From contig JAQVNC010000001.1 of assembly GCA_028703305.1 (NCBI GenBank), positions 56,791 to 120,790 of the forward strand: a stretch of DNA of 64,000 nt. Direction: 5' to 3'. Positions 11,172 through 62,785 of the stretch are shown here, piece by piece. This DNA comes from Patescibacteria group bacterium (GTDB taxonomy: Bacteria > Patescibacteriota > Patescibacteriia > Patescibacteriales > GWC2-42-12). Numbering within the stretch: position 1 is the first letter of the stretch; each line of letters starts with the position of its first letter. Under the pieces are notes generated by a model. That model saw nothing but the letters and a program-made list of their open reading frames with translations, ran no database searches and had not been told where the DNA came from. The position numbers were made by a program, and so were the translations under genes.

Positions 11172-11300
11172 CAAGATAGTTTAGCAAGGTAATGGATTCC
11201 CGCTTTCCCGCCAGAGGCGGACAAGCGCGGGAATGACAAATAGATTCAAGGTAGTTTATTAAGGTAATGGATTGCGGCTCGTAGGCCGCAATGACAAAAT
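11172..11300 (+). repeat. Tandem pair of short hairpin repeats (aaggtaatggattcccgc…gcgggaatgacaa and aaggtaatggattgcggc…gccgcaatgacaa) immediately upstream of the ychF start
   Basis: About 70-bp unit duplicated (tcaagRtagtttaNNaaggtaatggatt…aatgacaaa); both units end in the AATGACAA motif shared with other copies. Confidence 0.65.
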
Positions 11301-11308
11301 AAAAAATT

Positions 11309-12367
11309 ATGTCTTTATCAATCGGAATTGTCGGTTTGCCTAATGTCGGCAAATCAACTTTATTTAACGCTTTAACCAAGAAAAAAGTTGAAGCCTCCAA
11401 TTATCCGTTCTGCACCATTGATCCGAATGTGGGCGTGGTTAAAGTTCCGGACGAAAGGCTGGAAAAATTGGCGACTATTTCCAAGCCTAAAAAAATCATA
11501 CCGGCCTATATTGAATTTGTTGATATCGCCGGCCTGGTTAAGGGCGCGTCCCAAGGCGAAGGGCTGGGCAACCAGTTTTTGTCCCATATTAGAGAGTGCG
11601 ACGCTATTTTAGAAGTGGTGCGCGAATTTAAGGACGATAATATTATTCATGTTAACGGTAAAATTGATCCGGAGGGCGATAAGGAAACCATAAACCTTGA
11701 ATTAATTTTTGCCGACTTGGCCACGGTTGAAAAAAGATTGGATAAAGTCGCACGAGAAGCTAAAAGCGGCAATAAAGAGATGATTGCCTTAAAAGCGCTT
11801 TTGGAAAAATTAAAAATACAGCTTGAGGCCGGCAAGGCTGCGCGCGAGCTTGAGTTAACAGATGATGAAAGAAAAGAAATAAAAAATTTGGGATTGTTAA
11901 CGGTTAAGCCGATAATTTACGTCCTAAACTCCGAGGATAACGCCACTGAAAAATTAGATTGGGGCAGCGAGGTTATTAAAATTAACGCCAAGCTGGAAGA
12001 AGAAATTGCCAGCCTGTCGGAAGATGAGCAGATAGAATATATTAAAGAATTAGGCTTAGACCAAAGCGGTTTGGATAAATTAATTAAAGCTTCATATAAT
12101 GTTTTAGGTCTAATTACTTTTTTAACTACCGGAGCTGACGAAACTCGGGCTTGGACAGTTAAACAAAGCTCTAAAGCGCCGCAAGCGGCCGGCGTCATCC
12201 ATACGGATTTTACCAAAGGCTTTATCCGCGCTGAAATTATTAACTGGCAGAAATTCATTGAAGCCGGATCCGAGGCTAAAGCGCGCGAGCTGGGTTGGAT
12301 TAAAACCGAGGGCAAAGAATATATAATACAAGACGGAGACGTTTGCAATTTTTTAATAAATAATTGA
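11309..12367 (+). CDS. ychF: Ribosome-binding ATPase YchF
   Basis: GIVGLPNVGKSTLFNALT G1 motif, DIAGLVKGASQGEGLGNQFL, and a TGS C-terminal domain. Confidence 0.9.
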   Translation: MSLSIGIVGLPNVGKSTLFNALTKKKVEASNYPFCTIDPNVGVVKVPDERLEKLATISKPKKIIPAYIEFVDIAGLVKGASQGEGLGNQFLSHIRECDAILEVVREFKDDNIIHVNGKIDPEGDKETINLELIFADLATVEKRLDKVAREAKSGNKEMIALKALLEKLKIQLEAGKAARELELTDDERKEIKNLGLLTVKPIIYVLNSEDNATEKLDWGSEVIKINAKLEEEIASLSEDEQIEYIKELGLDQSGLDKLIKASYNVLGLITFLTTGADETRAWTVKQSSKAPQAAGVIHTDFTKGFIRAEIINWQKFIEAGSEAKARELGWIKTEGKEYIIQDGDVCNFLINN

Positions 12368-12390
12368 CAAAGTTTATAAAATTGCTATAT
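12363..12390 (+). promoter_or_regulatory. Near-consensus sigma70 promoter (TTGACA-16-TATATT) overlapping the ychF stop codon
   Basis: tTGAca contains the ychF TGA stop; spacer aagtttataaaattgc; -10 tatatt. Confidence 0.6.
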
Positions 12391-12396
12391 TAAAGG

Positions 12397-12645
12397 GCTA
12401 CATCACAGTTGCTCTTTTTTAATACGCGGGATTCATTGGCCTGCCGGGGCTAATGATGAAATTTTTGCTTAAGCCTTTAAAACCAGTCCGCTGGCCGAGG
12501 CCACCTCCTCCTACCGCAACGGACGGGGTTTTCGCAAAAGTTTGATTTCCCGCTTTAGGGGTTGGTCTGCTGTGCGGCGGAGTTGCCAACGACTGCTCCG
12601 CTTGACTAATGCATGCCACGGACCGCCCCTTTTTCTCTTTTTAAA
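12397..12645 (+). ncRNA. Candidate GC-rich structured ncRNA of unknown class, about 250 nt, bounded by a promoter and a terminator
   Basis: About 55% GC in a roughly 35% GC genome with no credible ORF in any frame; long-range stem aggggttggtc/gaccgcccct followed by ttttctcttttt; an internal gcggag…ctccgc hairpin. Confidence 0.4.
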
Positions 12646-12883
12646 AAGCATCAATTAAGATGCTTCTTTTTTTATAAAATTTGCCCAGATTATTTAATCT
12701 AAAATTTCATATTCCCAGCCCGGTTGCCAACCGGTCGCCAGGTCATTCTCATTATCAATCGTCGTGCCATGCACGAAGTAGGTTATTTTTACGGGCATAA
12801 TTAAGAGTAGATATTTTATTTAGTACAAAGTGTAAAAGAATTAGGGTATAAATGCTCCGGAGACAAGGCTTATTATTACATGA

Positions 12884-14137
12884 CTATGCGGCAAAAGCAA
12901 ACAATTGTTGCTGAATGCACACAGGCGTTTCCTCTTTTTCTTCTTCAATTTCACCGTTAAGCATTTTAATTATCATGTCGCCGATGTGATATCCGAGGTT
13001 TGCAGGTACAGCATTTCCTATTTGTTTATATTGTTGCGAAACGGATCCTGAAAATTTCCAACTATCTGGAAATGTTTGAATTCGCGCGTATTCGCGCACA
13101 GACAAAGGGCGCGTTTCATCTGGATGGCAACGTTCAGTTTGTTTTTGAGCCGGACTGCAAGTTAAGGTTAAAGATGGTTCGTCCCATGACAATCGTCTCG
13201 CCATGCCAGTTTTGCCGCCACCCATAAAATAACTTGCTCCCATGTATTCTTTTTGAAGATTTTCCGGAAGATCTCTCCAGTACCCGCCAGGAGGAATTAG
13301 TTCTAATATTTTTTTCTTTTTTTCGGGATATTCTTGGCCTTCAGATTTTGGGCATCTGTTGAATGCTTCACGCAGGGGAACGATATAATCTTTTTCCCTT
13401 GGAAATGAAATTGGAATATTTAAATCTTTTCTAACGCCAATAATTATAAGACGTTCTCTTTTTTGCGGAACATCCAAATATTGTGATCGTAGAATTTTAT
13501 ATTTAACTCGGTATCCAATTTCTTCTAAAACAGACACCATCGTTTTAATCGTTCTGCCATCGTTATGGTTTAGTAATCCTTTGACATTTTCTCCAATTGC
13601 AATTTTAGGCCTAACTTCCTTAACACATCTCGCGAACTCAAAAAATAATGTACCCCGTATATCTTCAAACCCCATTTTTCGACCAGCTTGCGAAAAAGTC
13701 TGGCAAGGGAAACCTCCTTGAACAATATCAGCCTGCCCTTTAAAAAATTTAAGCTCTCTTATATCTTTTTCCACAACATTCCAATTTGGCTTGTTGATTC
13801 GAAGTGTTTCACAGGCGTGTTTGTCATACTCGTTTAATAACACATGTTCAATTCCCGCGTTTTCCATCCCTAAAGCAGTGCCCCCTGCGCCAGCAAATAA
13901 CTCGATTGCTGTGTAGTTGGACATTCGATTATTCTTTAAAATTTTAAATTTGCTTTTTTTATCCCCATGAGTTTTATTTTGTATTCTCTTTATTTCTTCT
14001 AAACTAAATATACGATCGTTTTTTCCATCTCTAAAAGATTTAATTAATCCTTTTTTATCCCACCTCCTGATAGTATCAATTGAAATACCTAATTGACGAG
14101 CCGCCTCTCCAGCGGTTATGAATTGATTTTTTTTCAT
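12884..14137 (-). CDS. DNA (cytosine-5) methyltransferase with an N-terminal MerR/excisionase-type HTH domain
   Basis: N-terminal FITAGEAARQLGISIDTIRRWDKKGLI (HTH); ELFAGAGG (motif I); GFPCQTFSQAGRKMG (PC motif IV); ENV; and a C-terminal QIGNAVP. Confidence 0.85.
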   Translation of the reverse strand: MKKNQFITAGEAARQLGISIDTIRRWDKKGLIKSFRDGKNDRIFSLEEIKRIQNKTHGDKKSKFKILKNNRMSNYTAIELFAGAGGTALGMENAGIEHVLLNEYDKHACETLRINKPNWNVVEKDIRELKFFKGQADIVQGGFPCQTFSQAGRKMGFEDIRGTLFFEFARCVKEVRPKIAIGENVKGLLNHNDGRTIKTMVSVLEEIGYRVKYKILRSQYLDVPQKRERLIIIGVRKDLNIPISFPREKDYIVPLREAFNRCPKSEGQEYPEKKKKILELIPPGGYWRDLPENLQKEYMGASYFMGGGKTGMARRLSWDEPSLTLTCSPAQKQTERCHPDETRPLSVREYARIQTFPDSWKFSGSVSQQYKQIGNAVPANLGYHIGDMIIKMLNGEIEEEKEETPVCIQQQLFAFAA

Positions 14138-14198
14138 AAAAAATGATAGATTAATAATCTATCATAATTATATCAAATAACCTTTGCCTAGGCAATGG

Positions 14199-14906
14199 TT
14201 ATTTAGTGAGAAAAGCTAATTTAAATAATTCAAAATATTTCTTAGCTTCTTCTTTGCTTAATTTAAACTTGTATTTGTCTACTAAAATATGAGATAGTGC
14301 TTCAAATAGTTCCTGCAGGGCATATTTTCGTCCGGTTGCAAGAGCATAAAAGCTTATGCCATCAATTATTCTGATATTTTTTGCGCTCGGTCTTCTTTTT
14401 TGAGTCTTATTGTCTGATGGGGTAAAAGGTTTGTCGTATATGTTTTTTGCTTGAGGTATTATTTCTACATAATATCCAGTAAAGCGATGAAATTTTTCTG
14501 ATTTAAGTTTTGATTTTATAGCATCATATATTTCAACCTTATGATTTCCTTTTGTTGTATTGAATTTATTTTTTACTTCCGCGATAATTTTCATTTTATC
14601 ATTTGCAACATCCAAACCTCCACCAACGCCGAGATTTTTCCAGCCAGGGATTGCACCCAATACTTCTTGATGAAAATCACCAATGGCATTTTGCATTGTT
14701 TTTTGTGATTGTCTGGCCTTTTCTTGTTTTATCCATTCTTTATATGTTATCGCATGGGTGACCCCATGAAACAAGGCTGAAAAAGGATCAATAACATTTT
14801 TATGGAGATTACTACTGGCCTCACGTTCGGTCGTTTTGATTATTCTGACCACTTTTCCAACGGCAGAAATTAGGTTTTTGTCGGATATAAATTTTAGATA
14901 TGGCAT
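14199..14906 (-). CDS. Putative type II restriction endonuclease partnering the C5-MTase (tentatively Eco47II-like)
   Basis: Adjacent and co-directional with the C5-MTase, 235 aa, no housekeeping similarity; the family assignment is from memory only. Confidence 0.45.
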   Translation of the reverse strand: MPYLKFISDKNLISAVGKVVRIIKTTEREASSNLHKNVIDPFSALFHGVTHAITYKEWIKQEKARQSQKTMQNAIGDFHQEVLGAIPGWKNLGVGGGLDVANDKMKIIAEVKNKFNTTKGNHKVEIYDAIKSKLKSEKFHRFTGYYVEIIPQAKNIYDKPFTPSDNKTQKRRPSAKNIRIIDGISFYALATGRKYALQELFEALSHILVDKYKFKLSKEEAKKYFELFKLAFLTK

Positions 14907-14927
14907 AAATATTTTTAATAATTAATT

Positions 14928-15110
14928 AAATCGTTTTCGCGGCGGAGCGGTTTTGCTCAACGTCGGCGCATATAAGAAGAAATGCGAAACGAGTTGAGGT
15001 GGTACAATTTGTGCGGAGCACTACCACCGAAAACGAGTGTAGCATTTTTTGCGTGAACGAGCCATGCGAGTGAGCCTTATATGCGCTGTTATATGCTGTG
15101 CCAGCCTTAT
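14928..15110. repeat. GC-rich repeat A: the 3' half of the 66-bp core plus a variable hairpin module (gcgcatataag…cttatatgcgc)
   Basis: cgcggcggagcggttttgctcaacg matches the right half of the cores at 15731 and 18911; long-range cgttttcg/cgaaaacg pairing. Confidence 0.6.
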
Positions 15111-15111
15111 A

Positions 15112-15570
15112 CTAAAGCTGTTTTTTCATTAGTGTCATTGAACCTACATCACCAACAATTTCCTTTATTTTTTTATATCCTAACTTCTTATAAAAATTTA
15201 CTGCAAAGGGGCTTGCTTTAAGGGAGACGGAGCGAAAACCCCATTTTTTTGCGTCACTTTCTAAACGATTCATGAGCTCTCTACCAATGCCCTTACCATG
15301 ATAATTCGGATTAACAAACACAGCACGACCCCAATTATCGTTCAGTGTTAAATCTAAAGTAGCAGTACCAACAACTTTTCCATTTAATTCAGCAACATAG
15401 ATATTGAATCGTTTAGAATCCTTAATAAACTGACCAGGTGTAAAATGCTTGTAGAGGATCACAGTTTGCTTTTTAGTTATATCTTTACTGTTAATTAAAA
15501 CGATACATTTTCTGCTTAAATAAGAAAGTTTTCGCTCGTCTCCCTTTTTAAATTTTCGAATTTTAATCAT
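15112..15570 (-). CDS. GNAT-family N-acetyltransferase
   Basis: Acetyl-CoA motif VGTATL…RAVFVNPNYHGKGIGRELM; start taken at MIKIRKF (15570), because the ORF-track N-extension runs into the GC repeat. Confidence 0.75.
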   Translation of the reverse strand: MIKIRKFKKGDERKLSYLSRKCIVLINSKDITKKQTVILYKHFTPGQFIKDSKRFNIYVAELNGKVVGTATLDLTLNDNWGRAVFVNPNYHGKGIGRELMNRLESDAKKWGFRSVSLKASPFAVNFYKKLGYKKIKEIVGDVGSMTLMKKQL

Positions 15571-15574
15571 AAGT

Positions 15575-15900
15575 TTAAGGCTGACATGGCATATAACGCG
15601 CGCGGGATATGCGATGCGCCTGGAGGCCAGTACTCTGGCCGCAAGGCGTTTCGCATATCCCGAGTTGGGCGATGCCGCTCCGCCTTGCCCGTAGGGCGGG
15701 CGAGCGGCGAGTCCAACGAGGGCCTGCCCGCGCGCGTTGAGCAAAACCGCGAGCACCGAGCGTTAGCGAGGGCGGAGCGGTTTTGCTCAACGTATCGGCA
15801 TATCTGATGTTTGCCGTAGCGTAGCGGAGGCAAATATGGGTGGAGGCTTTTGTATAAAAGCCGTAACCAGATATGCCGTGTTATGTGATGTGCATGTTTT
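15575..15900. repeat. GC-rich repeat B: hairpin cgggatatgcga…tcgcatatcccg, then the 66-bp core (15731..15796), then a variable hairpin module (ggcatatctg…cagatatgcc)
   Basis: The core cgcgcGTTGAGCaaaaccgc…gcggttttGCTCAACgtatc is identical to 18911..18976. Confidence 0.7.
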
Positions 15901-16016
15901 ACTTTAATCCCGATAGCAATCGGGATTGCTCTAAAAAAGAATTTTAATTTTGTTTTTTTTGTTTTGAAAAAATGAAAGAGGGGTTAGGGGTGAATTCCAT
16001 TTTTCAAAACTCCTTA

Positions 16017-16754
16017 TTATTTACTACGTTGTTTTTTATAAGCCTCAATAATTTTATTTGCCAATTCATTAGATTTAGATTCGTATTTTACAAATTCATC
16101 AATATTATCTTGTTTAACATGTAGCTGCCCTTCTCCGGTGTTGCCTCTGTGCTGTCCTTTTGAATAGTATTTATTTTGCTCAACTTCTTTTGAAGCAAGT
16201 ACCCAATATTTAATCGTGTCTCGCCAAACTCCAACCCAAACAAAAACATCGCAACATTTAGGCTTTACTTGTTGAAAATTCATATCAAATGGTAGTCCTG
16301 ATTCCCATGCTAACGCTTTAACATAAAGTGCTTCTTGACTGTTAAAATCGACAGCTCTTGAGGCTTTAACTTCTATTTTAATCATTTCTCCATTCGTTAG
16401 CGGATATAAAAAGTCGTATTCTCCAGAATAATTTTCTTCAAGTTTCTTTGTTGGCTTAATAAGTTCAGGAGCAAGCTCTTTTAGGTGTCCCTGTGCCCAT
16501 TGTTCTCCAAACCCACGTGGTGCAGAAATTTCAAATATGTAGAGATACATATTTCTAGCAATATACTCATCTCTAATTTCTAGATAATCGTCTAAAGTGA
16601 TTTTATCTAGACCTAACAAAGTTGAAATTATGTATTCATATTCATTAAATGGATACACCGAAATTAAATTTTCGAGCCTTGTTTTAAGTCCGTCGCCCTC
16701 TTGTTTTGAAAGAGAGTCTATCATCTTTTCGAGTTTTTTCTTTAGAATTTCCAT
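16017..16754 (-). CDS. Hypothetical protein with a PD-(D/E)xK-like motif; putative restriction endonuclease of the second R-M module
   Basis: …EYDFLYPLTNGEMIKIEVKASRA… (D…ExK arrangement); 4 bp downstream of and co-directional with the N6A-MTase. Confidence 0.4.
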   Translation of the reverse strand: MEILKKKLEKMIDSLSKQEGDGLKTRLENLISVYPFNEYEYIISTLLGLDKITLDDYLEIRDEYIARNMYLYIFEISAPRGFGEQWAQGHLKELAPELIKPTKKLEENYSGEYDFLYPLTNGEMIKIEVKASRAVDFNSQEALYVKALAWESGLPFDMNFQQVKPKCCDVFVWVGVWRDTIKYWVLASKEVEQNKYYSKGQHRGNTGEGQLHVKQDNIDEFVKYESKSNELANKIIEAYKKQRSK

Positions 16755-16758
16755 AGGA

Positions 16759-18723
16759 TTATTTAATGTTAAAATTTTTAATATGTTTTTTTTCTTTTTC
16801 TGTAAGACTAAATTGATCCATTATATAATTATCCAATTCTTCATATTTGTCTTTTTTGGCTATTATATCATCTACTAATTTCATAATTATTTCAAAAATT
16901 TCTTTATTCCATAAAGGTAAAGGCATTTGTTCAATATGATTTCTCAAAACTTTTATACTCGAAAACTTTTTTTGAAAAATAAACTGATAAGGAGATGAGT
17001 TTAATAAAGCAACGATAACCTTAATTGGATAGTTTGGGATTTTGGGAATTACAATATTTGCACTATTTAAAGTTAATTTTTGCTTGTCATCATATGCAAA
17101 TATCAAATACTTTGAAATGAAGCGATAAATTAATTTTTCTTTAGCTCTATATTTTTCGATAGGAGCAACTTGTTGAAATTTTTCGGGAGTAAATTGTATG
17201 TAATTTGACGGATTACTTAAAATAAATTTATCAACTTCTTTTCCTTTATATATTTCTTCAAGTCCTTCTTTTTTTTCGCTCGTTATATATGCTTTGTTAT
17301 TGCCAGTAACAATACCAAGTGCCCAATCTGCTTGATTTGATAATGTTGTGTGCTGAATATCAAAAATTTTATCAATTATGCTTGTATCAAAGCCATTTGC
17401 ATGTATGTCAAAAACAAAGTCAATATTATTTTTCCACTTAGATTGTTCAATGAAATATTTTTCATTTTCTTTAAAAATTTCAATCTGTGTGTTTTCTATT
17501 CTGTTTTTTTCTAAATCAAGTCTGATAACTGGAGTAAATACATTTTTAAACACACGATTCAAACAAGAGACTTTTTTTATATGAGTATTTTTCAAAATAA
17601 TTTCTCGTATATCTTTGTGTGTTTTTACATTCAAAATTGATTCAGGCAAGATAAATGAAATAAATCCTCCGTCTTTTAGCAAATCAATACTCTTTTTTAA
17701 GAAATAAGAGAAAGATTCTAAAGATGTTATTTCAGGATAGGTTGTTTTTAATTTTTCTGTATCTAATTTTGAAAAATGAACACCCCAAGGTGGATTTGTC
17801 GCAATTACATCAAAATCTCTAATATTCTCGTCATTCAAACTAAATAAATCATAACTTCCAATTTCAAAAAGTGTATTTTTACAAACAATATTTGGTGCGA
17901 AGTTTTGATCTTTATATTTCATCAAGATATTTAATCTTGCGATTCTCACAGCTATTTCGTCTATATCAACTCCGTAAATATTTTTTGGATTTTCAACTGT
18001 ATCAGCAAATGCTAATAAAAATTGACCTGTTCCACAACAAGGGTCTAAAACTTTAGAATCTGTTTTTACATAATCCTTAATTATTTCATTAACGATTGTT
18101 TCTGGCGTATAATAAGAGCCTCCTTGTGATTTTTCCCCCTCAAGTAATAGTGATTGATAAAAAAATCCCAAAGTATCACGTTGTCTGGGGATAGAACAAT
18201 TTAACAAAAAGGAATATTCATCTTTAACATTATCAACACCAATATCTGATAACCATGCTTTGATTTCTTCTGAGATTTGTTTGTTGGTGGAAGATAAATT
18301 TTGTGTGATTAAATTTTGAATTGTAATATTTGAAAATATTTTTTCTTTTTGAAGTAAGTTAAGACTTAATAATAATAAAGAAAGTGAAGTATTAATATTA
18401 TTTTTTGAAACAAAGTCTAAAATTTTATTTATGTCATCAATACTAATCCCATCTTTTAAATATTCATCTGGAATAAAAGTCCTCTCTGCTTTAGATTTAT
18501 TTGCCCTTCCATTTAATTTGTCAAAATCACCATTTACTATGTTAGATTTGATATTTTCAATATCGGATAAACTAAAAGAATATCGTCTTTCATTGTTATA
18601 TGTTTTTAGATGACCGCATTTAACCCAATTTCTTACGGTCGCAGTTGAAATACCTAAAAAAGACGACGCTTTTTCAATGTCTATGATATTTTTTGCCTTA
18701 TTTGTAATAGTTAATTCCTGCAT
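16759..18723 (-). CDS. Gamma-class N6-adenine DNA methyltransferase with an N-terminal HTH and a C-terminal target-recognition domain
   Basis: N-terminal ASSFLGISTATVRNWVKCGHL (HTH); VLDPCCGTGQFLL (motif I) precedes DVIATNPPWG (motif IV); start taken at MQELTIT (18723), so the ORF-track N-extension is untranslated leader. Confidence 0.8.
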   Translation of the reverse strand: MQELTITNKAKNIIDIEKASSFLGISTATVRNWVKCGHLKTYNNERRYSFSLSDIENIKSNIVNGDFDKLNGRANKSKAERTFIPDEYLKDGISIDDINKILDFVSKNNINTSLSLLLLSLNLLQKEKIFSNITIQNLITQNLSSTNKQISEEIKAWLSDIGVDNVKDEYSFLLNCSIPRQRDTLGFFYQSLLLEGEKSQGGSYYTPETIVNEIIKDYVKTDSKVLDPCCGTGQFLLAFADTVENPKNIYGVDIDEIAVRIARLNILMKYKDQNFAPNIVCKNTLFEIGSYDLFSLNDENIRDFDVIATNPPWGVHFSKLDTEKLKTTYPEITSLESFSYFLKKSIDLLKDGGFISFILPESILNVKTHKDIREIILKNTHIKKVSCLNRVFKNVFTPVIRLDLEKNRIENTQIEIFKENEKYFIEQSKWKNNIDFVFDIHANGFDTSIIDKIFDIQHTTLSNQADWALGIVTGNNKAYITSEKKEGLEEIYKGKEVDKFILSNPSNYIQFTPEKFQQVAPIEKYRAKEKLIYRFISKYLIFAYDDKQKLTLNSANIVIPKIPNYPIKVIVALLNSSPYQFIFQKKFSSIKVLRNHIEQMPLPLWNKEIFEIIMKLVDDIIAKKDKYEELDNYIMDQFSLTEKEKKHIKNFNIK

Positions 18724-18771
18724 GGTAATTTGTCTTTTATAGTGTAATTGTATCTTGTTTTCAAAAATATT

Positions 18772-18806
18772 AAAATCGTTTTCGGAGCGATAGCGGAGAA
18801 AACACC
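18772..18806. repeat. Degenerate partial copy (D) of the GC-rich repeat in the 5' leader of the N6A-MTase
   Basis: aaaatcgttttcggagcgatagcggagaaaacacc versus repeat A aaatcgttttcgcggcggagcgg. Confidence 0.45.
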
Positions 18807-18879
18807 TTATACCCCCCTCTTTAAAAATTAAAAAAATCAAATTCCTTGTTTCTTAAAGCCCACCAAAAACATTTAAAAA

Positions 18880-19140
18880 AACAAATTTTTCAAAAATATG
18901 TCGCCTAACGCGCGCGTTGAGCAAAACCGCGAGCACCGAGCGTTAGCGAGGGCGGAGCGGTTTTGCTCAACGTATCCGAATATACGAAGTTCTAATTTTT
19001 TTCTGTGTTATAATTGTGCGGACACGCCAACGCAGAAAAAAATTAGAATTTAGGCGGAGATAAAATTCAACTCATTAATGTAATGTAAAAAGGAATTTTA
19101 TCGGAGCCGTATATTCGGTGTTATCGGATGTAAAATTTAT
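18880..19140. repeat. GC-rich repeat C: GCCTAAC-gcgcgc then the 66-bp core (18911..18976) then a variable module (cgaatatacg…cgtatattcg, with a nested ttctaatttttttctg…cagaaaaaaattagaa hairpin)
   Basis: 66-bp perfect identity with 15731..15796; the flanking stems covary around a central ATAT. Confidence 0.7.
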
Positions 19141-19152
19141 TAGCGGGCTTAT

Positions 19153-19482
19153 TTAAACGAAAATTTGAATAATATAATAATAAATGACACTTAAAACAAG
19201 TATTAAACTTGTTGCTTTGATAAATTGATTTTTTATTAATATCGAAAATTTGATTAAAAAGAACGTTAATGCCAAAAATATTATTAGCGGATAAATGCTC
19301 ATTATAACAAAAGCAGTGCCTCCAAAAACGGCTTGAATGCTTTCGTTGAAATCAGAAGGGTAGCCGTTTATTTTTGGAATTATAAATAAGTAACATGCTG
19401 ATAAAAATAATGAGCTTACAAAAAGAAGCGGAATTAATAAAAAATCAAATTTTTGGGGTCTTAAGATTTGTAGTGGTTTCAT
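19153..19482 (-). CDS. Hypothetical small membrane protein (3 TM segments)
   Basis: Hydrophobic profile only. Confidence 0.45.
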   Translation of the reverse strand: MKPLQILRPQKFDFLLIPLLFVSSLFLSACYLFIIPKINGYPSDFNESIQAVFGGTAFVIMSIYPLIIFLALTFFLIKFSILIKNQFIKATSLILVLSVIYYYIIQIFV

Positions 19483-19597
19483 TGTTATATTGTTAAAAAT
19501 TAGAAAGCTAATAAATTTTATTTCCGATAACTAGTTATATATGAACTTAATTATATTTTATTTAATTTTACAATAAAAATCAAATAAGGTTTTGGGT

Positions 19598-19634
19598 TTT
19601 TTTCTGGATTCCCGCCTGTGCGGGAATGACAAGC
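19598..19634 (+). repeat. Short hairpin repeat ttttctggattcccgcctgtgcgggaatgacaa (S2)
   Basis: Same consensus as the copies at 20845, 50640, 11187 and 62333. Confidence 0.65.
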
Positions 19635-19638
19635 GGGA

Positions 19639-20814
19639 TTATTTTTCCAATATAACTATCTCCCGCCAAACCTTTTGCCCGTCGCGGCCGTAGATAATAC
19701 TGTCGCGGTTGGTTATTTTTAGAAAAATATTTTTTTTCAGGTTGGCCGGTATAGAGCCAATAATTTTATAACCATCTATGTTAGGGTAGATAAAAGTTGA
19801 AAGTTTTCCCTGAAACACGGGCCAAATCATCACGATTTTACCACCGGGTTTTAAAATTTTTTTAAATTCTCTTAAACTTTCGGAATATAATTTTTCCAGT
19901 TCAGTTTTTATTTTATTAATCGGCGTATTGCCTCTTTGCGGGCCTAAATACGGTTCGGTAATAATAAAATCTATTGAATTCGGCGCAATGTGTTTTGAAA
20001 TTTGCGCGGCGTCAGAATGAAAAAGCTTAAAATTTAAAGCTTCAAGTTTAAAATTAGATTGAACCCAGGCGAGATTATTTTTTGTGTCTCCGAGAGCCCT
20101 GTCGGATATATCAGAACCGGTTATTTTTTTATAGCCCATTAAAGCCGCTTCGGTAATAATCGTGCCAGAACCGCAAAATGGATCTAAAATAGCCGCGCCT
20201 AAATCCGCGCCAGCTAAATTTATCATAATCTGCGCCAGCTTGGGCGGCAACATGCCGGAATAATCGTCGCGCGCCGGCCGGCCGTAATCTCTAAATGACA
20301 ATTCTTTAAACGGCTGGACGGCCAGGGTTTTTCCTAAAAGTAATTTTTTATTAAATTCAATAATAACGATTTCCACGCCTTTGTCCGTAACTAATTTGTT
20401 CTGCTCCACCACTACGCTTGATAAAGTCGGTTCCCGGCTTATAACCCAGCGGCTATTTATGCCTGACTCTTTAAGTAATTTTTTAAATTCCATGCCTAAA
20501 ACTTTTAAGTTAATTTTACTTTTACCATAATAAGAAATGCCAAAATTAAATTTTGAATCACTTTTTTCCGGTTTGGCGAAGCTGGTAGCTGATTTTAAAA
20601 TGTCTTTAACAGCAATTGAAGCTGGCTCGCCATGAATTAGGCCGAATTTAACGGTGCCGCCGATTTTTTTAATAATATTAGCCTTTATTTCTTCGTTAGT
20701 TTCTAAAATCGCGATATTTTTTTGAATTAAAGAAAATTGGCCATGATTAAAAACGGCCGTTAGTTCGGCTAAGGATAAAGTCGGGTTGGTGCCCAGAATG
20801 AAGAAATAACGCAT
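19639..20814 (-). CDS. THUMP-domain RNA methyltransferase (RlmL/Trm-G10-like, UPF0020)
   Basis: N-terminal THUMP-like region plus DPFCGSGTIITEAALMGYKKITGSDIS…, a SAM-binding methylase core. Confidence 0.7.
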   Translation of the reverse strand: MRYFFILGTNPTLSLAELTAVFNHGQFSLIQKNIAILETNEEIKANIIKKIGGTVKFGLIHGEPASIAVKDILKSATSFAKPEKSDSKFNFGISYYGKSKINLKVLGMEFKKLLKESGINSRWVISREPTLSSVVVEQNKLVTDKGVEIVIIEFNKKLLLGKTLAVQPFKELSFRDYGRPARDDYSGMLPPKLAQIMINLAGADLGAAILDPFCGSGTIITEAALMGYKKITGSDISDRALGDTKNNLAWVQSNFKLEALNFKLFHSDAAQISKHIAPNSIDFIITEPYLGPQRGNTPINKIKTELEKLYSESLREFKKILKPGGKIVMIWPVFQGKLSTFIYPNIDGYKIIGSIPANLKKNIFLKITNRDSIIYGRDGQKVWREIVILEK

Positions 20815-20844
20815 ATTTTTAGTAAATTGATTTTGCTGATGATT

Positions 20845-20877
20845 TTTTCTGGATTCCCGCTTTCGCGGGAATGACGA
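20845..20877 (+). repeat. Short hairpin repeat ttttctggattcccgctttcgcgggaatgacgaa (S3)
   Basis: Consensus family member; lies in the THUMP-MTase upstream region. Confidence 0.6.
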
Positions 20878-21114
20878 AGGTAATTTAATTAAACCTTAGC
20901 ATAAGAATATGGCTCTTGCAATTTATTTTTGGCTGTGGTAATGTATGAATACAATTTAATTTAACCTTTCCCATATTTAACTGCTAGTGCTGTTAAATAG
21001 CCTGGCGCAAAGCCAGACTAAAGGTATTCTCAAGTAATCCCATGATTGGCAATTCAAGCCGCGAGAATATCTTGGGATTTTTGTTAATAAGGCAAAAATT
21101 AACCAATTAAAATT

Positions 21115-21606: not shown

Positions 21607-21643
21607 TTATTATAAAATTTAATTTATAAATAAACTCAAATTT

Positions 21644-22114: not shown

Positions 22115-22121
22115 ATACTTA

Positions 22122-22234
22122 GTCATTGCGAGCGAACGGAGTGAGCGAAGCAATCTCACGTATGAGAAGTTTAAATTATAATTTTTACTTCGTGGGATTG
22201 CTTCGTCGCCTATTACGGCTCCTCGCAATAACAA
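22122..22234. repeat. Nested palindromic repeat L1 (gtcattgcgag…gaagcaatctcac…gtgggattgcttc…ctcgcaataacaa), intercistronic between ssb and rpsR
   Basis: Outer and inner inverted blocks shared with five other copies. Confidence 0.75.
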
Positions 22235-22245
22235 TTCATATTACT

Positions 22246-22467: not shown

Positions 22468-22487
22468 TCTTCATAAGCAAATATAAT

Positions 22488-23045: not shown

Positions 23046-23107
23046 ATAAAAAATAAATTTGCATAAATAAAAAACAGAGGCTAAATTGCCTCTGTTTTTT
23101 TTAAATT

Positions 23108-23245
23108 GTCATTGCGAGCGTTAGCGAAGCAATCTCACGAACAATTTAAATAGAATAAATTTTTATTGCAGTGATAATCTATGATTTTAATAAATAGTAT
23201 GTGAGATTGCTTCGTCGCACGAGTACGTACTCCTCGCAATGACAA
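23108..23245. repeat. Nested palindromic repeat L2, between the efp and recA 3' ends
   Basis: gtcattgcgagcgttagcgaagcaatctcac…gtgagattgcttcgtcgcacgagtacgtactcctcgcaatgacaa. Confidence 0.75.
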
Positions 23246-23252
23246 ACCGAGA

Positions 23253-37732: not shown

Positions 37733-37743
37733 ACTATAATTTT

Positions 37744-37845
37744 GTCATTGCGAGGAGCCACGTACTCGTGGCGACGCGGCAATCTCTGGTTGAGCTCCGA
37801 GTATGTGAGATTGCTTCGCTTCCTTTGGTCGCTCGCAATGACAAT
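37744..37845. repeat. Nested palindromic repeat L3
   Basis: gtcattgcgaggagccacgtactcgtggcgacgcggcaatctctg…gtgagattgcttcgcttcctttggtcgctcgcaatgacaa; near-identical to L6. Confidence 0.75.
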
Positions 37846-49004: not shown

Positions 49005-49011
49005 GATTTTA

Positions 49012-49296: not shown

Positions 49297-49329
49297 AATT
49301 GAACATTATAAATTAAGGAGGGAAAAATT

Positions 49330-50626: not shown

Positions 50627-50629
50627 ATT

Positions 50630-50700
50630 GTTATTGCGAAAAATTTCTGGATTCCCGCCTGCGCGGGAATGACAAATTGGAGATTGGTCGCAATGACATT
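50630..50700 (+). repeat. Short hairpin repeat S4 (tttctggattcccgcctgcgcgggaatgacaa) nested inside a minimal gttattgcgaa…gtcgcaatgaca frame; it supplies ATGs upstream of gdh
   Basis: Shares the consensus of the other S copies; the flanks resemble the termini of the L family. Confidence 0.65.
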
Positions 50701-51946: not shown

Positions 51947-51955
51947 GATAATATT

Positions 51956-52064
51956 GTCATTGCGAGCTTCTGAAAGAAGCGAAGCAATCTCACGAATGGC
52001 AAGTTTGGGTAAAAAATTGTTGTCCGTGAGATTGTTTCGTCGCTGAAGCTCCTCGCAATGACAG
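51956..52064. repeat. Nested palindromic repeat L4
   Basis: gtcattgcgagcttctgaaagaagcgaagcaatctcac…gtgagattgtttcgtcgctgaagctcctcgcaatgaca. Confidence 0.75.
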
Positions 52065-52070
52065 AATAAT

Positions 52071-52367: not shown

Positions 52368-52423
52368 AAGACAAATAAAAAAGCCGAGGCGATAACAGCC
52401 TCGGCTTTTTTATATGAAAAATT

Positions 52424-53761: not shown

Positions 53762-53835
53762 ATTTATCGGTTATTTTATAAAAAAGGCGATAGATTTTAC
53801 CGCCTTTTTTATTCTAACAAAGTATATTATTTTTG

Positions 53836-54972: not shown

Positions 54973-55019
54973 ATAATTGTGTTTTAATAATATATACTCT
55001 AATAATAACATTTAAGGTA

Positions 55020-56624: not shown

Positions 56625-57480
56625 TTTCTTTTAGCAGTTGGTTAACATAATCCAGAGATGAATCATTTAAAATAGTAATATCAAATTTTTTCTTAAACTG
56701 TTTTAAGTTTTCTTTTTCGTCATGATTATAAAAGCCGATTTTAATTAAATGGTCGTAATTAAAGCCGGTTACCATATCAACATCGCCCAGCCGGTCGCCC
56801 AACAGGATAACATTTTTTCTTTTTTTCATTTTCCGCCAGATGACCGGAAAATTTTTTATTTTCGCTTCATCTTTATTGGCGCTATGGATAATAGGCTTTT
56901 TAAAGCCAATCATCCGCCCTTTTTTATCCCAGATTAAAGTATTGGAAATTATATAAATATTGTTTGATTGGATTTTGCTTTGGCGCAGGCTGGCCTTGAC
57001 CGACTCATCGCCCAGACCGCTGGCCGACATGATAACTAAAGGTATTTTATTAATTCTAAGAAGTTTAAAAAAATCAACGCCGCCGTCTCTTAAGCGGATA
57101 TTATCAGACTTAACTGCCCGGGCGATATCTTTTTTGGTCAGGTCGGATTCAATTAGGAGTTTGAAATGTTTAGACCACCATTCATTCATGGCGCGTTTTT
57201 TTTTGGTCGGGGAAACTTTATAGCTGTCTTCTATGGGGTGGTATTTGTAGTAAAGGGCGTAGGATTTTTCCGGGTAATCAGGGGTCAGATATTTTTCATC
57301 GCGCAATACTGAAATTAGGGAATTTACTTTTTTGCCATTAACATAGGCTTTAGTTAAAGTATTGTCAAAATCAGCCAGAACATGAATTTTGCGCGCGCCA
57401 GTGCGCGCTAAAGCGGCAATAGTTTTTTTCAGCTTTTTAGGGCTGGTAATTATTATATTTTTAGGCGTTATTTTAGACAT
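56611..57480 (-). CDS. HAD-superfamily hydrolase, pyrimidine-5'-nucleotidase (UMPH-1)-like
   Basis: HVLADFDNTLT motif I, and a downstream Lys and DD motif. Confidence 0.55.
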   Translation of the reverse strand: MSKITPKNIIITSPKKLKKTIAALARTGARKIHVLADFDNTLTKAYVNGKKVNSLISVLRDEKYLTPDYPEKSYALYYKYHPIEDSYKVSPTKKKRAMNEWWSKHFKLLIESDLTKKDIARAVKSDNIRLRDGGVDFFKLLRINKIPLVIMSASGLGDESVKASLRQSKIQSNNIYIISNTLIWDKKGRMIGFKKPIIHSANKDEAKIKNFPVIWRKMKKRKNVILLGDRLGDVDMVTGFNYDHLIKIGFYNHDEKENLKQFKKKFDITILNDSSLDYVNQLLKEITSY

Positions 57481-57620
57481 ATTTTTATGGTAGCAAGTTT
57501 ATTTATTTTTGTCATGCCAGCCGTAGCCTGCCCCCTTTCTTTTGACAAAAAGAGTGGAAAAAACTACTATTAAGATAAAGATTTTGTATTATCGTAGACA
57601 GTATTTATTAAATTATGAGT

Positions 57621-57662
57621 GTGTGAGATTGCTTCGTCGCTGGAGCTCCTCGCAATGACAAT
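57621..57662. repeat. Right half of nested palindromic repeat L5 (a possible degenerate left arm lies near 57513)
   Basis: gtgtgagattgcttcgtcgctggagctcctcgcaatgacaa. Confidence 0.6.
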
Positions 57663-57671
57663 TTTAAATAT

Positions 57672-58919
57672 ATGTTAAATTATAAAATTTTAAATGAGCA
57701 GGATGCTGAAGTTATGGCCGCGGTTAAACGGGAAATGGCCAGGCAGGCCGAGGAAATGGAATTAATCGCTTCGGAAAATTATACTTCTAAAGCCGTGCTG
57801 GAAGCCATGGCGACCGTCTTGACCAATAAATATTCCGAGGGCACGCCAGGCCACCGTTATTACGGCGGCAATAAATTCGTGGATGAAGTGGAAACTATCG
57901 CGGTAGAGCGGGCAAAAAAATTATTCTCGGCTGAGCATGTTAATGTCCAGCCTCTTTCCGGTTCGCCGGCTAACGCGGCCGTGTATATGGCATTTATTAA
58001 GCCGGGTGATAAAGTTTTAGGCTTGCGCTTAGACCATGGCGGGCATTTATCGCATGGTCATCCGGTTAATTTTTCCGGCATGCTGTATAATTTTACCCAA
58101 TATGAAGTTGACGCCGAAACCGGTAAAATTGATATGGAGAAAGTTAGGGAAGTCGCTTTGCGGGAAAAGCCGAAAATGATCGTGGCCGGCTATAGCGCTT
58201 ATTCACGGGAAATAGAATGGCAAAAATTTAAAGATATCGCGGACGAAGTAGGCGCGTTCACTTTCGCGGATATAGCTCATACGGCAGGACTGATCGCGGC
58301 CGGCGAGATGAATAATCCGGTGTTGATTTTTGACGTGGTTTCCACGACCACTCATAAAACTTTACGCGGCCCGCGCGGCGCCATGATAATGTGCAAAGAG
58401 CAGTTTGCCAAGCAGGTTGACCGGGCGGTTTTTCCCGGCATGCAGGGCGGGCCGCATGACCATATCACCGCGGCTAAAGCCGTGGCTTTCGGCGAAGCTT
58501 TGCGCCCGGAATTTAAAGAGTATGCCAAGCAAGTAACCTTGAACGCCAAACTTATGGCCGAGGAATTTATAAGGCTGGGCTATCGGGTAATTTCTAACGG
58601 CACGGACAACCATTTAATGGTGGTTGATATGACCTCTAAAGGTTTATCGGGCAAAGAAGCTGAAATTATTTTAGATAAATGCGGTATTTCGGTTTCCCGC
58701 TCCACAATTCCGAACGACCCTAATCCGCCCATGAACCCATCGGGCGTGCGCTTTGGCACTCCGGCTATTACCACCCGCGGCATGAAAGAGGAAGAAATTA
58801 AAAAAATCGTCGGCTGGATTAATGCCGCGATTGAACAAAAAGACGAGGCGGAAATGCTTGATAATATTAAGAAGCAAGTTAAAGAAATGTGCTTGGAATT
58901 TCCGATACCTTCAATATGA
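57672..58919 (+). CDS. glyA: Serine hydroxymethyltransferase
   Basis: PLP site …STTTHKTLRGPRGAMI… and overall SHMT conservation. Confidence 0.95.
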   Translation: MLNYKILNEQDAEVMAAVKREMARQAEEMELIASENYTSKAVLEAMATVLTNKYSEGTPGHRYYGGNKFVDEVETIAVERAKKLFSAEHVNVQPLSGSPANAAVYMAFIKPGDKVLGLRLDHGGHLSHGHPVNFSGMLYNFTQYEVDAETGKIDMEKVREVALREKPKMIVAGYSAYSREIEWQKFKDIADEVGAFTFADIAHTAGLIAAGEMNNPVLIFDVVSTTTHKTLRGPRGAMIMCKEQFAKQVDRAVFPGMQGGPHDHITAAKAVAFGEALRPEFKEYAKQVTLNAKLMAEEFIRLGYRVISNGTDNHLMVVDMTSKGLSGKEAEIILDKCGISVSRSTIPNDPNPPMNPSGVRFGTPAITTRGMKEEEIKKIVGWINAAIEQKDEAEMLDNIKKQVKEMCLEFPIPSI

Positions 58920-58920
58920 T

Positions 58921-59013
58921 GTCATTGCGAGGAGCGCTAGCGACGAAGCAATCTCTGGTTAATATCCGAGTACGTGAGATTGCTTCGCTCCTTTCAGTCG
59001 CTCGCAATGACAC
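58921..59013. repeat. Nested palindromic repeat L6, abutting the glyA stop
   Basis: gtcattgcgaggagcgctagcgacgaagcaatctctg…gtgagattgcttcgctcctttcagtcgctcgcaatgaca. Confidence 0.75.
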
Positions 59014-59021
59014 TATTTTTT

Positions 59022-59870
59022 ATGTCTAAAATTATTGACGGCAAAATTTTGGCGGAAAAAATCAAAGATAAAATCGCCAAAGAAATATATGATTTAAAAG
59101 GGCCAAGGCCGAATTTGGCCATTATTTTAATCGGCCAGCGTCCGGATTCGCAGTTGTATGTAAATTTAAAAGAAAGAGAGGCTAAAAAAGTCGGCATTGA
59201 TACCCATCTCTATAAATGCCCGGAGAATATCAGCGAGCTGGAAATTTTAGAAATGATAAAATGCTTAAATGAAGATAAAACCATTGACGCGATTTTAGTG
59301 CAGCTGCCCATGCCGGTAGAAATTGATACGGACACGATTATTATGGCGCTTGATCCGGTAAAAGACGTTGACGGTTTTCATCCGGATAATTTGGAAAAAA
59401 TTTTAAAAGACTGCGGTTCATCTTATTTAATGCCGCCGGTTTATGCCACGGTTTTAGAGATGCTAAACAGCATAAATTATGAAATAAAAGATAAACAAGT
59501 TTGTGTAATTTCCAATGCTGATATTTTCGGTCAGACTTTAGCCCATGTTTTAAAATGCCAAGGCGCCAAAGCGGAGATGGCTAAAGCGGATGATAAAAAT
59601 TTAGCCGAAAAAACCGGCCAAGCCGACGTTTTAATCACGGCCGCTGGCAGACCGGAATTTATCAAGAAGCGGATGATAAAACAAGGTGCCGTCATTATAG
59701 ATATTGGCATTAATCAGAAAGGCGATAAAGTCGTGGGTGATGTTGATTTTAATAATGTAAAAGACAAAGCCGGCTATATTACTCCGGTACCCGGCGGGGT
59801 CGGCCCCATGACTATCGCCATGGCGTTTAAAAATACACTGGAGATTTTTAAGAAAAGGCATAAAAAATAA
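59022..59870 (+). CDS. folD: Bifunctional methylenetetrahydrofolate dehydrogenase/cyclohydrolase
   Basis: KIIDGKILAEKIK…, YxxxK active site and a PGGVGPMT C-terminal motif; start at the ATG at 59022. Confidence 0.9.
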   Translation: MSKIIDGKILAEKIKDKIAKEIYDLKGPRPNLAIILIGQRPDSQLYVNLKEREAKKVGIDTHLYKCPENISELEILEMIKCLNEDKTIDAILVQLPMPVEIDTDTIIMALDPVKDVDGFHPDNLEKILKDCGSSYLMPPVYATVLEMLNSINYEIKDKQVCVISNADIFGQTLAHVLKCQGAKAEMAKADDKNLAEKTGQADVLITAAGRPEFIKKRMIKQGAVIIDIGINQKGDKVVGDVDFNNVKDKAGYITPVPGGVGPMTIAMAFKNTLEIFKKRHKK

Positions 59871-59970
59871 AGTGAATGATTGAATAAAAAATACCGGAGT
59901 CATTTCTGGCTCCGGTTTTTGCTTGAATTTTTCCGTTATGTTAATCTTAAGTTAGTTTATTTATTACGTC

Positions 59971-60008
59971 AAGGAAATGGATCCCGGGTCAAGTCCGCAA
60001 TGACAATA
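59971..60008 (+). repeat. Degenerate short hairpin repeat S6 (aaggaaatggatcccgggtcaagtccgcaatgacaa) overlapping the recQ start
   Basis: Matches the aaggtaatggattcccgc…gcaatgacaa family; its aATGacaa provides the recQ ATG. Confidence 0.5.
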
Positions 60009-62072
60009 CAAAATATGGAAAATAAAAAACAAGAGCTCTTAGAGCTTTTAAAAATACACTATGGTTTTAATTCGTTTCGGCCGGGCCAAGAAAAAGTTAT
60101 AGATAATATCCTGGCCGGCCGTTCTACCGTAGTTATTATGCCGACCGGCGGCGGCAAGTCTTTATGCTACCAGCTGCCGGCTTTGGTTTTGGACGGCGTT
60201 ACTTTAGTAATTTCGCCTTTAATCGCTTTAATGAAAGATCAGGTTGACGGCCTTTTAAAAATCGGTCTGCCGGCTACTTTTATTAACTCTTCTATTAGCC
60301 AGGCTGAAACTTTAAACAGAATAGAAGCGGTTAAAGCCGGCCAATATAAATTACTCTATATCGCGCCGGAAAGATTTTATAGCGCCGATTTTATGGCTGC
60401 TTTAAGCCAGATTAAAGTTAGTTTGTTCGCGGTTGACGAAGCGCATTGCATTAGCCAATGGGGGCATGATTTTCGCCCCAGCTACATAAAATTAAGAAGC
60501 GCCATTGAAGTATTGGGCAAGCCTACGGTGGTGGCCTTAACCGCTACGGCCACGTTGGAAGTCAGGGACGATATCATTAAGCAATTAGGCTTAATTGATC
60601 CAGCCTTAGTTATTACCGGTTTTGCCAGGCCTAATTTGCAGTTTGGCGTAATTAACACCCAAGATTCGCGCAAGCCGCAATTTGTTTTAGACGCGATTTC
60701 TAGCGCGCCGGACGGCACCGGCATAATTTACGTTGGCACGCGATCGCGCGCCGACGAACTCTTGCAGGTATTACTCGGCAATAATATTGAAGCGGTGAGT
60801 TATCATGCCGGCATGGATATAGAAGACCGGAAATGGGTGCAGGAAAATTTTATGAAAGGCAAAGCTAAAGTTATTGTGGCCACTAACGCCTTTGGGCTGG
60901 GCATTGATAAGCGAGACATCAGGTTTGTTATTCATTATGACATGCCGGGCACGATTGAAGCCTATTATCAGGAAGCCGGCCGAGCCGGCCGCGACGGCAA
61001 ACAAAGTTTTTGCCTGCTTTTATATAGTCCGCGCGACCGCTATCTTCAGGAATTTTTTATCAAAGGCGATAATCCGCCGCCGGAAATGATTTTGGAAATT
61101 TATGAAATTTTAAAAAATTACGAAACCGACACGATTTTAATCACTTACGCGGAAATTGCCGAAATGCTGTCCGATAAAGTTCCGGAAATGGCTATTGGTA
61201 CGGCCATAAAAGTTTTGGAACGCGAAGGCTATATCACGCGTTCGCATGACCGGGTGGGGCAGGCGTATCTCAAAGCTCATAACTCAAAACTCGCAACTCA
61301 AAACTTAAAGAGTAAAAGCCAGCGTGAAAATTTGGAGCGCCTGCTTAATAAATACGGCAGCGAGCTGGAAGCCGGCATGTACGCCGACTTAGAAGAAGTG
61401 GCGGATGTTTTAGGCATAAAAAAAGATACTTTAGCGCGCCTAATTAAAAAATTAAAAGATCTGGATTTAGTTGATTATGTGCCGCCGTTTCGGGGCACGG
61501 AATTAAAAATATTAAAACGAGTTGATGGCAATGATGTTAAGCTTGACTTCGCGGCTTTAAAATATAAATTAAAGCATGCTTACAATAAATTGGATCTAAT
61601 GGAAAATTATATTTATCATAATACTTGCAGACAAAAATATATTCTTGATTATTTTGGCGACTTGGAGTCGCAAAAATGCGCCAAGTGCGATAATTGCCTG
61701 GTCGGCAATATGGATGAGGTGGAAAAAGTTCAAGTTGAAGCCAAACATAAAAAGAAAACTTCAAGCCTGTCAACCAAGCTAACGCAGCTGGAAACTTTGG
61801 AATTATGGAATAAGGGATTTAGTTTGGAAAAAATCGCCCAGGCGCGAGAGTTGGCCGTCGGCACGATTATCGGCCATTTGTGTTTTTTAGCCGAAAAAGG
61901 CTTAGGCGTTAATATTGATAAGCTGGTTAAGCCGGAACGGCAGAAAAGAATAATGGAAGTTGTAAAGAAAATTGGCGCGGATAAGCTAACGCCGATTCGC
62001 GAGGCGCTAGGCGAGGAATTTAGCTGGGACGAGATAAAATTGGTATTGGCGAAGATGAAAAGTAAAAAATAA
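60000..62072 (+). CDS. recQ: ATP-dependent DNA helicase RecQ
   Basis: [15 protein letters not shown] (motif I), [14 protein letters not shown] (DEAH), Zn-binding and HRDC-like C-terminus. Confidence 0.85.
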
Positions 62073-62074
62073 AC

Positions 62075-62785
62075 ATGGATAAACAAACGCAGAAAAATTT
62101 ATTAGAGCTGGTAAAAAAAAATTACGAGGAAATCGCGGAGAATTTTGATATAACCAGAAAAAAACAGTTATGGCCGGAGCTTTTGAAATTGGCCGAAATG
62201 GTGAAAGATGGAGATAGAATTTTAGATGTTGGCTGTGGCAACGGTAGATTGATAGAAGCGTTTGGCGAAAAGAAAATAGAATATCTGGGAGTGGATAGTA
62301 GTGAGAAACTGGTTGAAACGGCGAAGAAGAATCTGGGCTCCCGCCTGCGCGGGCATGACAAATTGGCGGTCGGTGATATTTTAAAATTGGATAAATTGCC
62401 GGAGAAAGATTTTAATTATGTTTTTTGCATTGCCGTCTTGCACCATCTGCCGGGCGAAGATTTAAGGCTGGAAGCTTTAAAGCAGATGAAAAATAAAATA
62501 AATAGTAACGGCAAAATTATAATCACGGTTTGGAATTTATGGAGCCGGTGGAAATTTATAAAATTGATTTTTAAGTACGGTTGGTTTAAGTCAGCCGGCA
62601 AAAACCAGATGGACTTCGGCGATATTTTGTTTGATTGGAAAAATAATAAGGGCGAGCGGATTAGCCGGCGGTATTACCATGCCTTTACCAAAAATGAATT
62701 AAAAAAACTGTCTGTCCGCGCGGGGTTTAAAGCGGAGAAAATATATAAAGATAAATATAATTATTACGCGATTTTAACCAAATAG
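62075..62785 (+). CDS. Class I SAM-dependent methyltransferase carrying an in-frame repeat-derived insertion
   Basis: LDVGCGNGRL motif I; residues …LGSRLRGHDKLAVGD… are encoded by an S-type repeat. Confidence 0.65.
   Translation: MDKQTQKNLLELVKKNYEEIAENFDITRKKQLWPELLKLAEMVKDGDRILDVGCGNGRLIEAFGEKKIEYLGVDSSEKLVETAKKNLGSRLRGHDKLAVGDILKLDKLPEKDFNYVFCIAVLHHLPGEDLRLEALKQMKNKINSNGKIIITVWNLWSRWKFIKLIFKYGWFKSAGKNQMDFGDILFDWKNNKGERISRRYYHAFTKNELKKLSVRAGFKAEKIYKDKYNYYAILTK

Follow-up and report, generated by a model that had tools for sequence, protein, structure and literature searches.

The Neisseria Transformation Sequence (NTS) is a short palindromic repeat with the 28-nt consensus CGTCATTCCCGCGMAVGCGGGAATCYRG (Chenal et al. 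2025, Nat Commun, PMC11893778), and it includes the older Neisseria dRS3 repeat ATTCCCN8GGGAAT (PMC11893778). It is the target of SsnA, a 94-aa single-domain GIY-YIG endonuclease (cd10448) of Neisseria, and a wider and more degenerate pattern, the Ssn-related motif (SRM), has been written as HGTCWYN(0-2)YYVSBRHN(0-5)WNVSBRGN(0-2)RNCYNB (PMC11893778). Here we describe a family of short hairpin repeats in a 64-kb stretch of DNA (the window; positions 56,791 to 120,790 of contig JAQVNC010000001.1 in assembly GCA_028703305.1) from a Patescibacteria group bacterium. To judge from their sequence, these repeats are very probably NTS/SRM elements of the Ssn family. The family itself is known already; the novelty is a member in Patescibacteria.

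SsnA binds its hairpin only as single-stranded DNA (ssDNA) and only in one orientation, and its cut falls a few nucleotides upstream. Cleavage depends on the three bases that precede the palindrome and binding on the C that follows it, and a change of sequence that keeps the hairpin abolishes activity (PMC11893778). In Neisseria, Ssn cleavage lowers the integration of transforming DNA that carries the NTS. Strand-specific ssDNA binding and cleavage has been demonstrated only for the Neisseria and Wolbachia enzymes. The ssn genes are typically flanked by the motif (PMC11893778). The genome survey of Chenal et al. covered RefSeq reference and representative genomes, and Patescibacteria go unmentioned in the main text (PMC11893778).

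Other small palindromic elements invite comparison. Repetitive extragenic palindromes (REP), with their bacterial interspersed mosaic elements (BIME) and REP-associated tyrosine transposases (RAYT), are likewise short, oriented and extragenic, form tandem or inverted clusters, and act as ssDNA hairpins recognised by a small nuclease whose gene they flank. They are set apart from the NTS type by their partner, an HUH/Y1 protein where the NTS type has a GIY-YIG enzyme, and by their conserved head, GT[AG]G in place of GTCATT. Rickettsia palindromic elements (RPE), cited in a review of transposable elements of the miniature inverted-repeat type (MITEs; PMC10969869), are also tolerated in frame in protein-coding genes, where they add a peptide to a surface region, but they measure about 100–150 bp and have a different sequence, whereas the unit in the window is about 30 nt, or 50–110 nt when paired. 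A further difference from RPE is that one loop of one orthologous gene holds different repeat families by lineage. The Correia elements (NEMIS) and bacterial MITEs are similar as small, abundant, intergenic inverted-repeat DNA by gene starts, in a naturally competent host. They differ from the 112 NTS copies whose flanks we compared, which show neither a duplication nor a target motif, in that their terminal inverted repeats are of defined length and a TA is duplicated at the target.

Probable identity of the repeats and a proposed Ssn nuclease

All coordinates are positions within the window, and the NTS sense strand reads on its minus strand. The sequence-only reading had listed seven sites of one hairpin family, and the motif was found at all seven. 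The sequence TTTCTGGATTCCCGC has 3 exact occurrences, and GCGGGAATGACAA with ≤2 mismatches has 9 matches against 1.6 expected, a count that none of 100 shuffles reached. A structural scan (GATT, a 5-nt stem, a loop, the complementary stem, and AATG) returned 5 perfect hairpins, all on the plus strand. When folded as ssDNA, five of the seven copies are intact hairpins with 8-bp stems (free energy −8.6 to −13.1 kcal/mol, z −3.5 to −4.3), and the other two, upstream of recQ and within a methyltransferase gene, are decayed. Orientation is identical in all seven, and the layout on the minus strand is 5'-(C/T)GTC-ATTCCCGC-loop-GCGGGAAT-C-CAG-3'.

This layout is that of the NTS. The 28-nt consensus matches the minus strand at 20849-20876 with 0 mismatches, at 50647-50674 with 1 and at 19604-19631 with 2, so that the first two of these fall within the cut-off of ≤1 mismatch used for NTS membership in PMC11893778. 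Four matches to the SRM pattern were found, each on the minus strand, where 100 first-order Markov simulations gave a mean of 0.07. The two flanks that confer orientation, GTC ahead of the palindrome and C just past it, are kept in all five intact copies. The repeats thus share with the described elements the consensus (to within 0–2 mismatches), the hairpin and the flanks; they are also multi-copy and mostly intergenic, and the phylum includes relatives in which the hairpin flanks ssn. They depart from the described elements in their host, a metagenome-assembled genome (MAG) of the Patescibacteria (candidate phyla radiation, CPR), in the lack of an ssn gene within the window, in one copy that lies in frame inside a gene, and in the co-occurrence of a second Ssn-associated family.

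An exact search of species-representative genomes with the 31-nt core and its flanks found at least 120 loci, in Proteobacteria, Planctomycetota, Omnitrophota, Nitrospirota, Chloroflexota, Bacteroidota and several Patescibacteria lineages. The hairpin directly adjoins a GIY-YIG open reading frame (ORF) of 96–97 aa in Desulfosarcina widdelii (L011) and in a second locus (L110). Homologues of this Ssn-like protein are numerous in Patescibacteria, among them Moranbacteria, Liptonbacteria and Doudnabacteria, and at one Moranbacteria locus (L128/L130) ssn has an NTS on both sides, in inverted orientation, with the upstream copy touching the ATG. At least 120 IMG/VR contigs of viral or proviral origin (L253-L372) contain the core as well, and five of them (L253, L278, L316, L341 and L342) carry an adjacent ssn; such contigs are a possible route of spread between phyla. 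A second inverted hairpin 10–25 nt past the CCAGAA tail, placed tail to tail, is common in other genomes and recalls BIME-like clusters.

We propose that a cognate Ssn, encoded outside the window, would bind the five intact copies at any time when the strand bearing them is unpaired, as it could be in incoming transforming DNA or in replication or repair intermediates. The repeats themselves would be selfish or domesticated elements of the REP type, REP-like passengers at neutral positions that accumulate where they are harmless, namely in the very short intergenic spacers of this compact genome and within a single protein loop that is permissive. That they lie close to start codons would be a by-product of the short spacers. 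Such a reading would place the Ssn/NTS system in Patescibacteria, with a hairpin essentially unchanged from that of Neisseria, and would add a second hairpin family associated with Ssn.

Several observations weigh against this explanation. No ssn or GIY-YIG ORF was found in the 64-kb window by tblastn with GIY-YIG query sequences, by a motif regular expression or by Pfam scans of the main ORFs. Although 81% of genomes with >200 SRMs carry ssn (PMC11893778), the figure covers only such genomes. An Ssn specific for the NTS may fail to recognise the copy with a GCGGC stem, because sequence changes that kept the hairpin abolished activity in the Neisseria system (PMC11893778). Finally, the uniform orientation of the seven copies is unaccounted for by an NTS/Ssn explanation.

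The lack of an ssn gene in the window also fits a different account, in which the hairpins came, by descent or by acquisition, with an Ssn module (on a prophage, for instance) that later disappeared, leaving relics that drift without a protein partner. The presence of NTS-ssn modules on viral contigs, which could therefore arrive and leave, and the decay of two of the seven copies fit such a history. We nevertheless consider it improbable: five copies retain perfect 8-bp stems together with the flanking GTC and C, and in one copy both sides of the stem have changed in a compensatory manner, which argues for maintenance of the hairpin. In addition, a relative with a 91% identical GDH lacks the copies, which hence are recent or were recently lost there.

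That relative, the closest one (L132), is syntenic with the window over 47.9-61.8 kb. Its trpS-gdh spacer is 33 nt long and has no NTS, compared with 81 nt in the window, and no copy lies upstream of its recQ. Because the closest relative lacks copies at these same junctions, the copies are lineage-specific insertions or deletions. At the recQ site an intact NTS is present in L125 and none in L123, L127 or L132, and intact copies at the recQ and the methyltransferase sites are carried by relatives other than L132. The view that this is a small element that comes and goes is thus borne out by differences in presence and absence at orthologous junctions.

Turnover of this kind would also be expected of a REP/RAYT- or MITE-type element moved by a transposase (IS200/IS605 Y1 or DDE) with no tie to Ssn, and the short oriented hairpins, their tandem and inverted pairs and their intergenic placement fit that model as well; Chenal et al. 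make the REP analogy themselves (PMC11893778). We find it quite improbable here. Pfam scans of the window's main ORFs revealed no transposase of the Y1 or DDE type, no integrase, and no RAYT (Y1 HUH) gene, flanked by repeats or otherwise. The flanks of 112 NTS copies hold ≤0.17 bits per position, with no conserved target, target-site duplication or longer terminal repeat, and a unit of about 30 nt is too short for a classical MITE. Where a gene adjoins the hairpin in other genomes, it is always the GIY-YIG Ssn.

Some REP elements act as terminators or mRNA-stabilising hairpins, and the stable GC-rich stems and intergenic positions of the window repeats could suggest a similar function at the RNA level. 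This appears very improbable, since neither strand has a T-run after the stem (the tails read GACAA or CCAGAAA) and a terminator scan called no copy. Copies in other genomes lie in either orientation relative to neighbouring genes, and SsnA does not bind the RNA form of its hairpin (PMC11893778). An Rfam search of the window at the gathering score returned 7 tRNAs only, with no match for the repeat. A canonical intrinsic terminator (a 10-bp stem followed by TTTTG) is already present after folD at 59893-59916, separate from the decayed copy ahead of recQ. A promoter reading of the repeats was rejected alongside the terminator reading.

A second hairpin family and the methyltransferase loop

Six further gene junctions are filled by another hairpin, TGTCATTGCGAG…GAAGCAATCTCAC, here called family B, which in most cases forms an inverted pair some 100 nt long. 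The GTCATT head is common to family B and the NTS, and the GCGGC variant in the window is intermediate between the two. Inverted pairs lie between ssb and rpsR (22121..22236), between efp and recA (23107..23244), between a GH57 gene and glgA (37743..37843), between gdh and a 98-aa ORF (51955..52063), a junction of only 5 nt in L132, and from the stop codon of the serine hydroxymethyltransferase (SHMT) gene to the start of folD at 59021 (58920..59012), where the two genes are 1 nt apart in L132. A single unit on the minus strand (57620..57660) stands upstream of the SHMT gene, glyA. The sequence ATAATAT could be a duplication at the 51955-52063 insertion; it is ambiguous, and absent at the other copies.

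A metagenome scan for the family B unit found at least 120 loci, and in four of them (L237, L148, L146 and L150) an Ssn-like GIY-YIG ORF adjoins the unit; in L237 a unit stands on either side of the gene, the two in inverted orientation. Proteins linked to family B read REKQIKGGSR where those linked to the NTS read REKQLKKWNR. Judged from these loci, family B is a second hairpin-Ssn pairing, with a distinct putative Ssn-like subfamily.

Both families are found at one site of a single protein family. The class I S-adenosylmethionine-dependent methyltransferase gene at 62075..62785 contains a decayed NTS (62332..62361) in frame, which encodes LGSRLRGHDK and whose placement inside a gene the sequence-only reading had passed over; in N. 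meningitidis, 2% of NTS lie within genes (PMC11893778). In an AlphaFold model (predicted local distance difference test, pLDDT, 89.5) this peptide falls at the end of helix 77-90 and in the loop before strand 96-99. When the loop was compared across the 120 closest homologues (P0001-P0120), an in-frame copy of either hairpin family was present in 36: the NTS in 16, a number of them having an expanded loop or a second unit in tandem, and the family B unit (REIASSPSTAPRNDK) in 20. About 21 of the 120 have no insert, and the remainder have heptamer-periodic or other inserts. The DNA sequences confirm these alleles, with a perfect NTS in L122, a family B unit in L123 and an expanded tandem in L125. 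The loop (residues 84-100) of this conserved Patescibacteria methyltransferase is hypervariable, ranging from 17 to 68 aa, and segments with a 7-aa period, such as NYELRITNYEF, correspond to heptanucleotide repeats. All loop variants share the AATGAC end.

In a neighbour-joining tree, which is poorly resolved, the loop allele types are interleaved, and this suggests repeated gain, loss or exchange. Patescibacteria Ssn hairpins might have been inserted, expanded and exchanged in frame at this loop through site-directed, nuclease-linked copying, a proposal that we put forward tentatively and regard as unlikely. If true, it could involve, for instance, Ssn nicking at GTCATT followed by template switching, and would offer a first view of how the repeats spread and of how the loop diversifies. 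The methyltransferase loop is in any event a natural locus at which to follow repeat insertion and turnover across many genomes. In two relatives, a bAvd and reverse transcriptase pair resembling a diversity-generating retroelement (L123 8853-10735 and L124 5294-7176) sits a few kb downstream of the orthologous methyltransferase.

Gene starts and copy orientation

The sequence-only reading had proposed a start-proximal hairpin that controls genes and donates the ATG of AATGACAA, or alternatively an element that targets gene 5' ends. Its observation of copies at gene starts holds: the starts of ychF (11309), gdh (50708) and recQ (60015) each follow the end of a copy by 7-10 nt. The in-frame ATGs also exist, at 50669 and 50693 for gdh and at 60000 for recQ, and the repeat ATG is in frame with recQ in L125 too. 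Initiation at these codons is excluded by the N-termini of orthologues, however, and the overall proposal is hardly credible for the reasons that follow.

For GDH we compared the 120 closest homologues, 41 of which are 412 aa long, and inspected the N-termini of 60; nearly all begin M-A-(D/N)-Q-F-K. The NCBI call for gdh of this genome (P0241) is the 412-aa form starting MADQFKG, and alignment of PDB GDH chains with the long ORF begins no earlier than its residue 15-16. Because these orthologue N-termini, the NCBI call and the PDB alignments agree, the start of gdh is ATG 50708, downstream of the repeat and of ATGs 50669 and 50693. RecQ orthologues without the repeat begin MENKKQQLLELL (MENKKQ; L127), MAEDNKKQQ (L123) and MRENTKKQE (L132), and on account of these N-termini recQ is taken to start at 60015. 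Ahead of ychF, the repeat ATG at 11291 meets a TAA after three codons. Downstream initiation together with a lack of bias towards gene 5' ends was what the sequence-only reading had itself named as refuting its proposal, and both are what we found. Shine-Dalgarno sequences were of little use as a guide to starts, as little such signal was seen upstream of the few starts read.

A preference for gene 5' ends is likewise not upheld. One copy in the window stands 6 nt after a stop codon and another inside a gene. In other genomes, where genes were called crudely as longest ORFs, we examined 123 copies from 120 loci. Their ends face a gene start 69 times and a gene stop 77 times, and the gene downstream has the same orientation in 34 cases and the opposite one in 44; neither orientation nor distance relative to neighbouring genes shows a bias in this set. 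Closeness to starts is unavoidable in this genome because the spacers are tiny (neighbouring genes are 1–33 nt apart in L132). The ATG within AATGACA is incidental, and nothing supports a regulatory side effect of a hairpin in the 5' untranslated region.

These results have a consequence for annotation. Five of the six reading frames are open through the NTS element, which contains both ATG and TTG, and for this reason ORF callers run starts into the hairpin. The longest-ORF starts 58974, 59880, 22126 and 50669 extend into repeats, whereas the true starts are 59021 for folD, 60015 for recQ and 50708 for gdh, and that of rpsR lies downstream of 22236; longest-ORF calls for all four genes are too long.

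The GC skew of the window is positive throughout, which points to the plus strand as the leading one, and all seven NTS sense strands are on the minus strand. In other genomes the split of copy orientation relative to skew was 56:42 across 98 loci, which is not significant, and a general rule tying orientation to the replication strand was dropped.

Individual copies and other repeats of the window

The individual copies, all on the minus strand, differ in their preservation. Between tRNA-Asp and ychF lies a tandem pair, the first member of which (11189..11240) is a hairpin of NTS type whose loop, expanded to 21 nt, encloses a nested hairpin (−13.1 kcal/mol, z −3.8). Its partner (11264..11298), which ends 10 nt ahead of the ychF start, is the variant GTCATTGCGGC-CTACGA-GCCGCAATCC, whose GCGGC/GCCGC stem shows the compensatory changes (−8.6 kcal/mol, z −4.0). 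An intact NTS, TGTCATTCCCGCACAGGCGGGAATCCAG (19601..19632; z −3.5), matches the SRM pattern and lies 6 nt past the stop codon of a UPF0020-type methyltransferase gene, 19639..20814(-), that matches Pfam PF01170. Another intact copy, CGTCATTCCCGCGAAAGCGGGAATCCAG (20846..20877; z −3.9), lies 31 nt upstream of the same gene. The two bracket the gene in direct orientation, their sense strand being its coding strand, and an NTS-gene-NTS layout of this kind has been discussed for Neisseria.

Between trpS (end 50626) and gdh, the intact NTS (50644..50675; z −4.3) is followed in tandem by a degenerate second unit (…GGTCGCAATGACA; 50676..50700) that carries ATG 50693 and has no stable fold. The same tandem of an NTS and a …RNDK unit, as at 50644..50700, is also found in frame in homologues of the methyltransferase at 62075..62785. 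The decayed copy upstream of recQ (59971..60008) forms no hairpin (z 0.06), and in the decayed copy inside the methyltransferase gene only the 5-bp core pairs (z −1.3).

The window holds other repeats as well. A third palindromic repeat, CGTTGAGCAAAACCGC…GCGGTTTTGCTCAACG, occurs at 14941-14979, 15729-15811 and 18909-18991, bracketing genes of a low-GC (29-33%) restriction-modification island that comprises a Dcm methylase and Eco47II endonuclease (12884-14906) and an Eco57I/TaqI-like methylase (16759-18840). A 48-nt repeat is present at 4208-4255 and 9145-9192, just after thioredoxin-reductase-like and SdpI-like genes, in two copies that are 92% identical.

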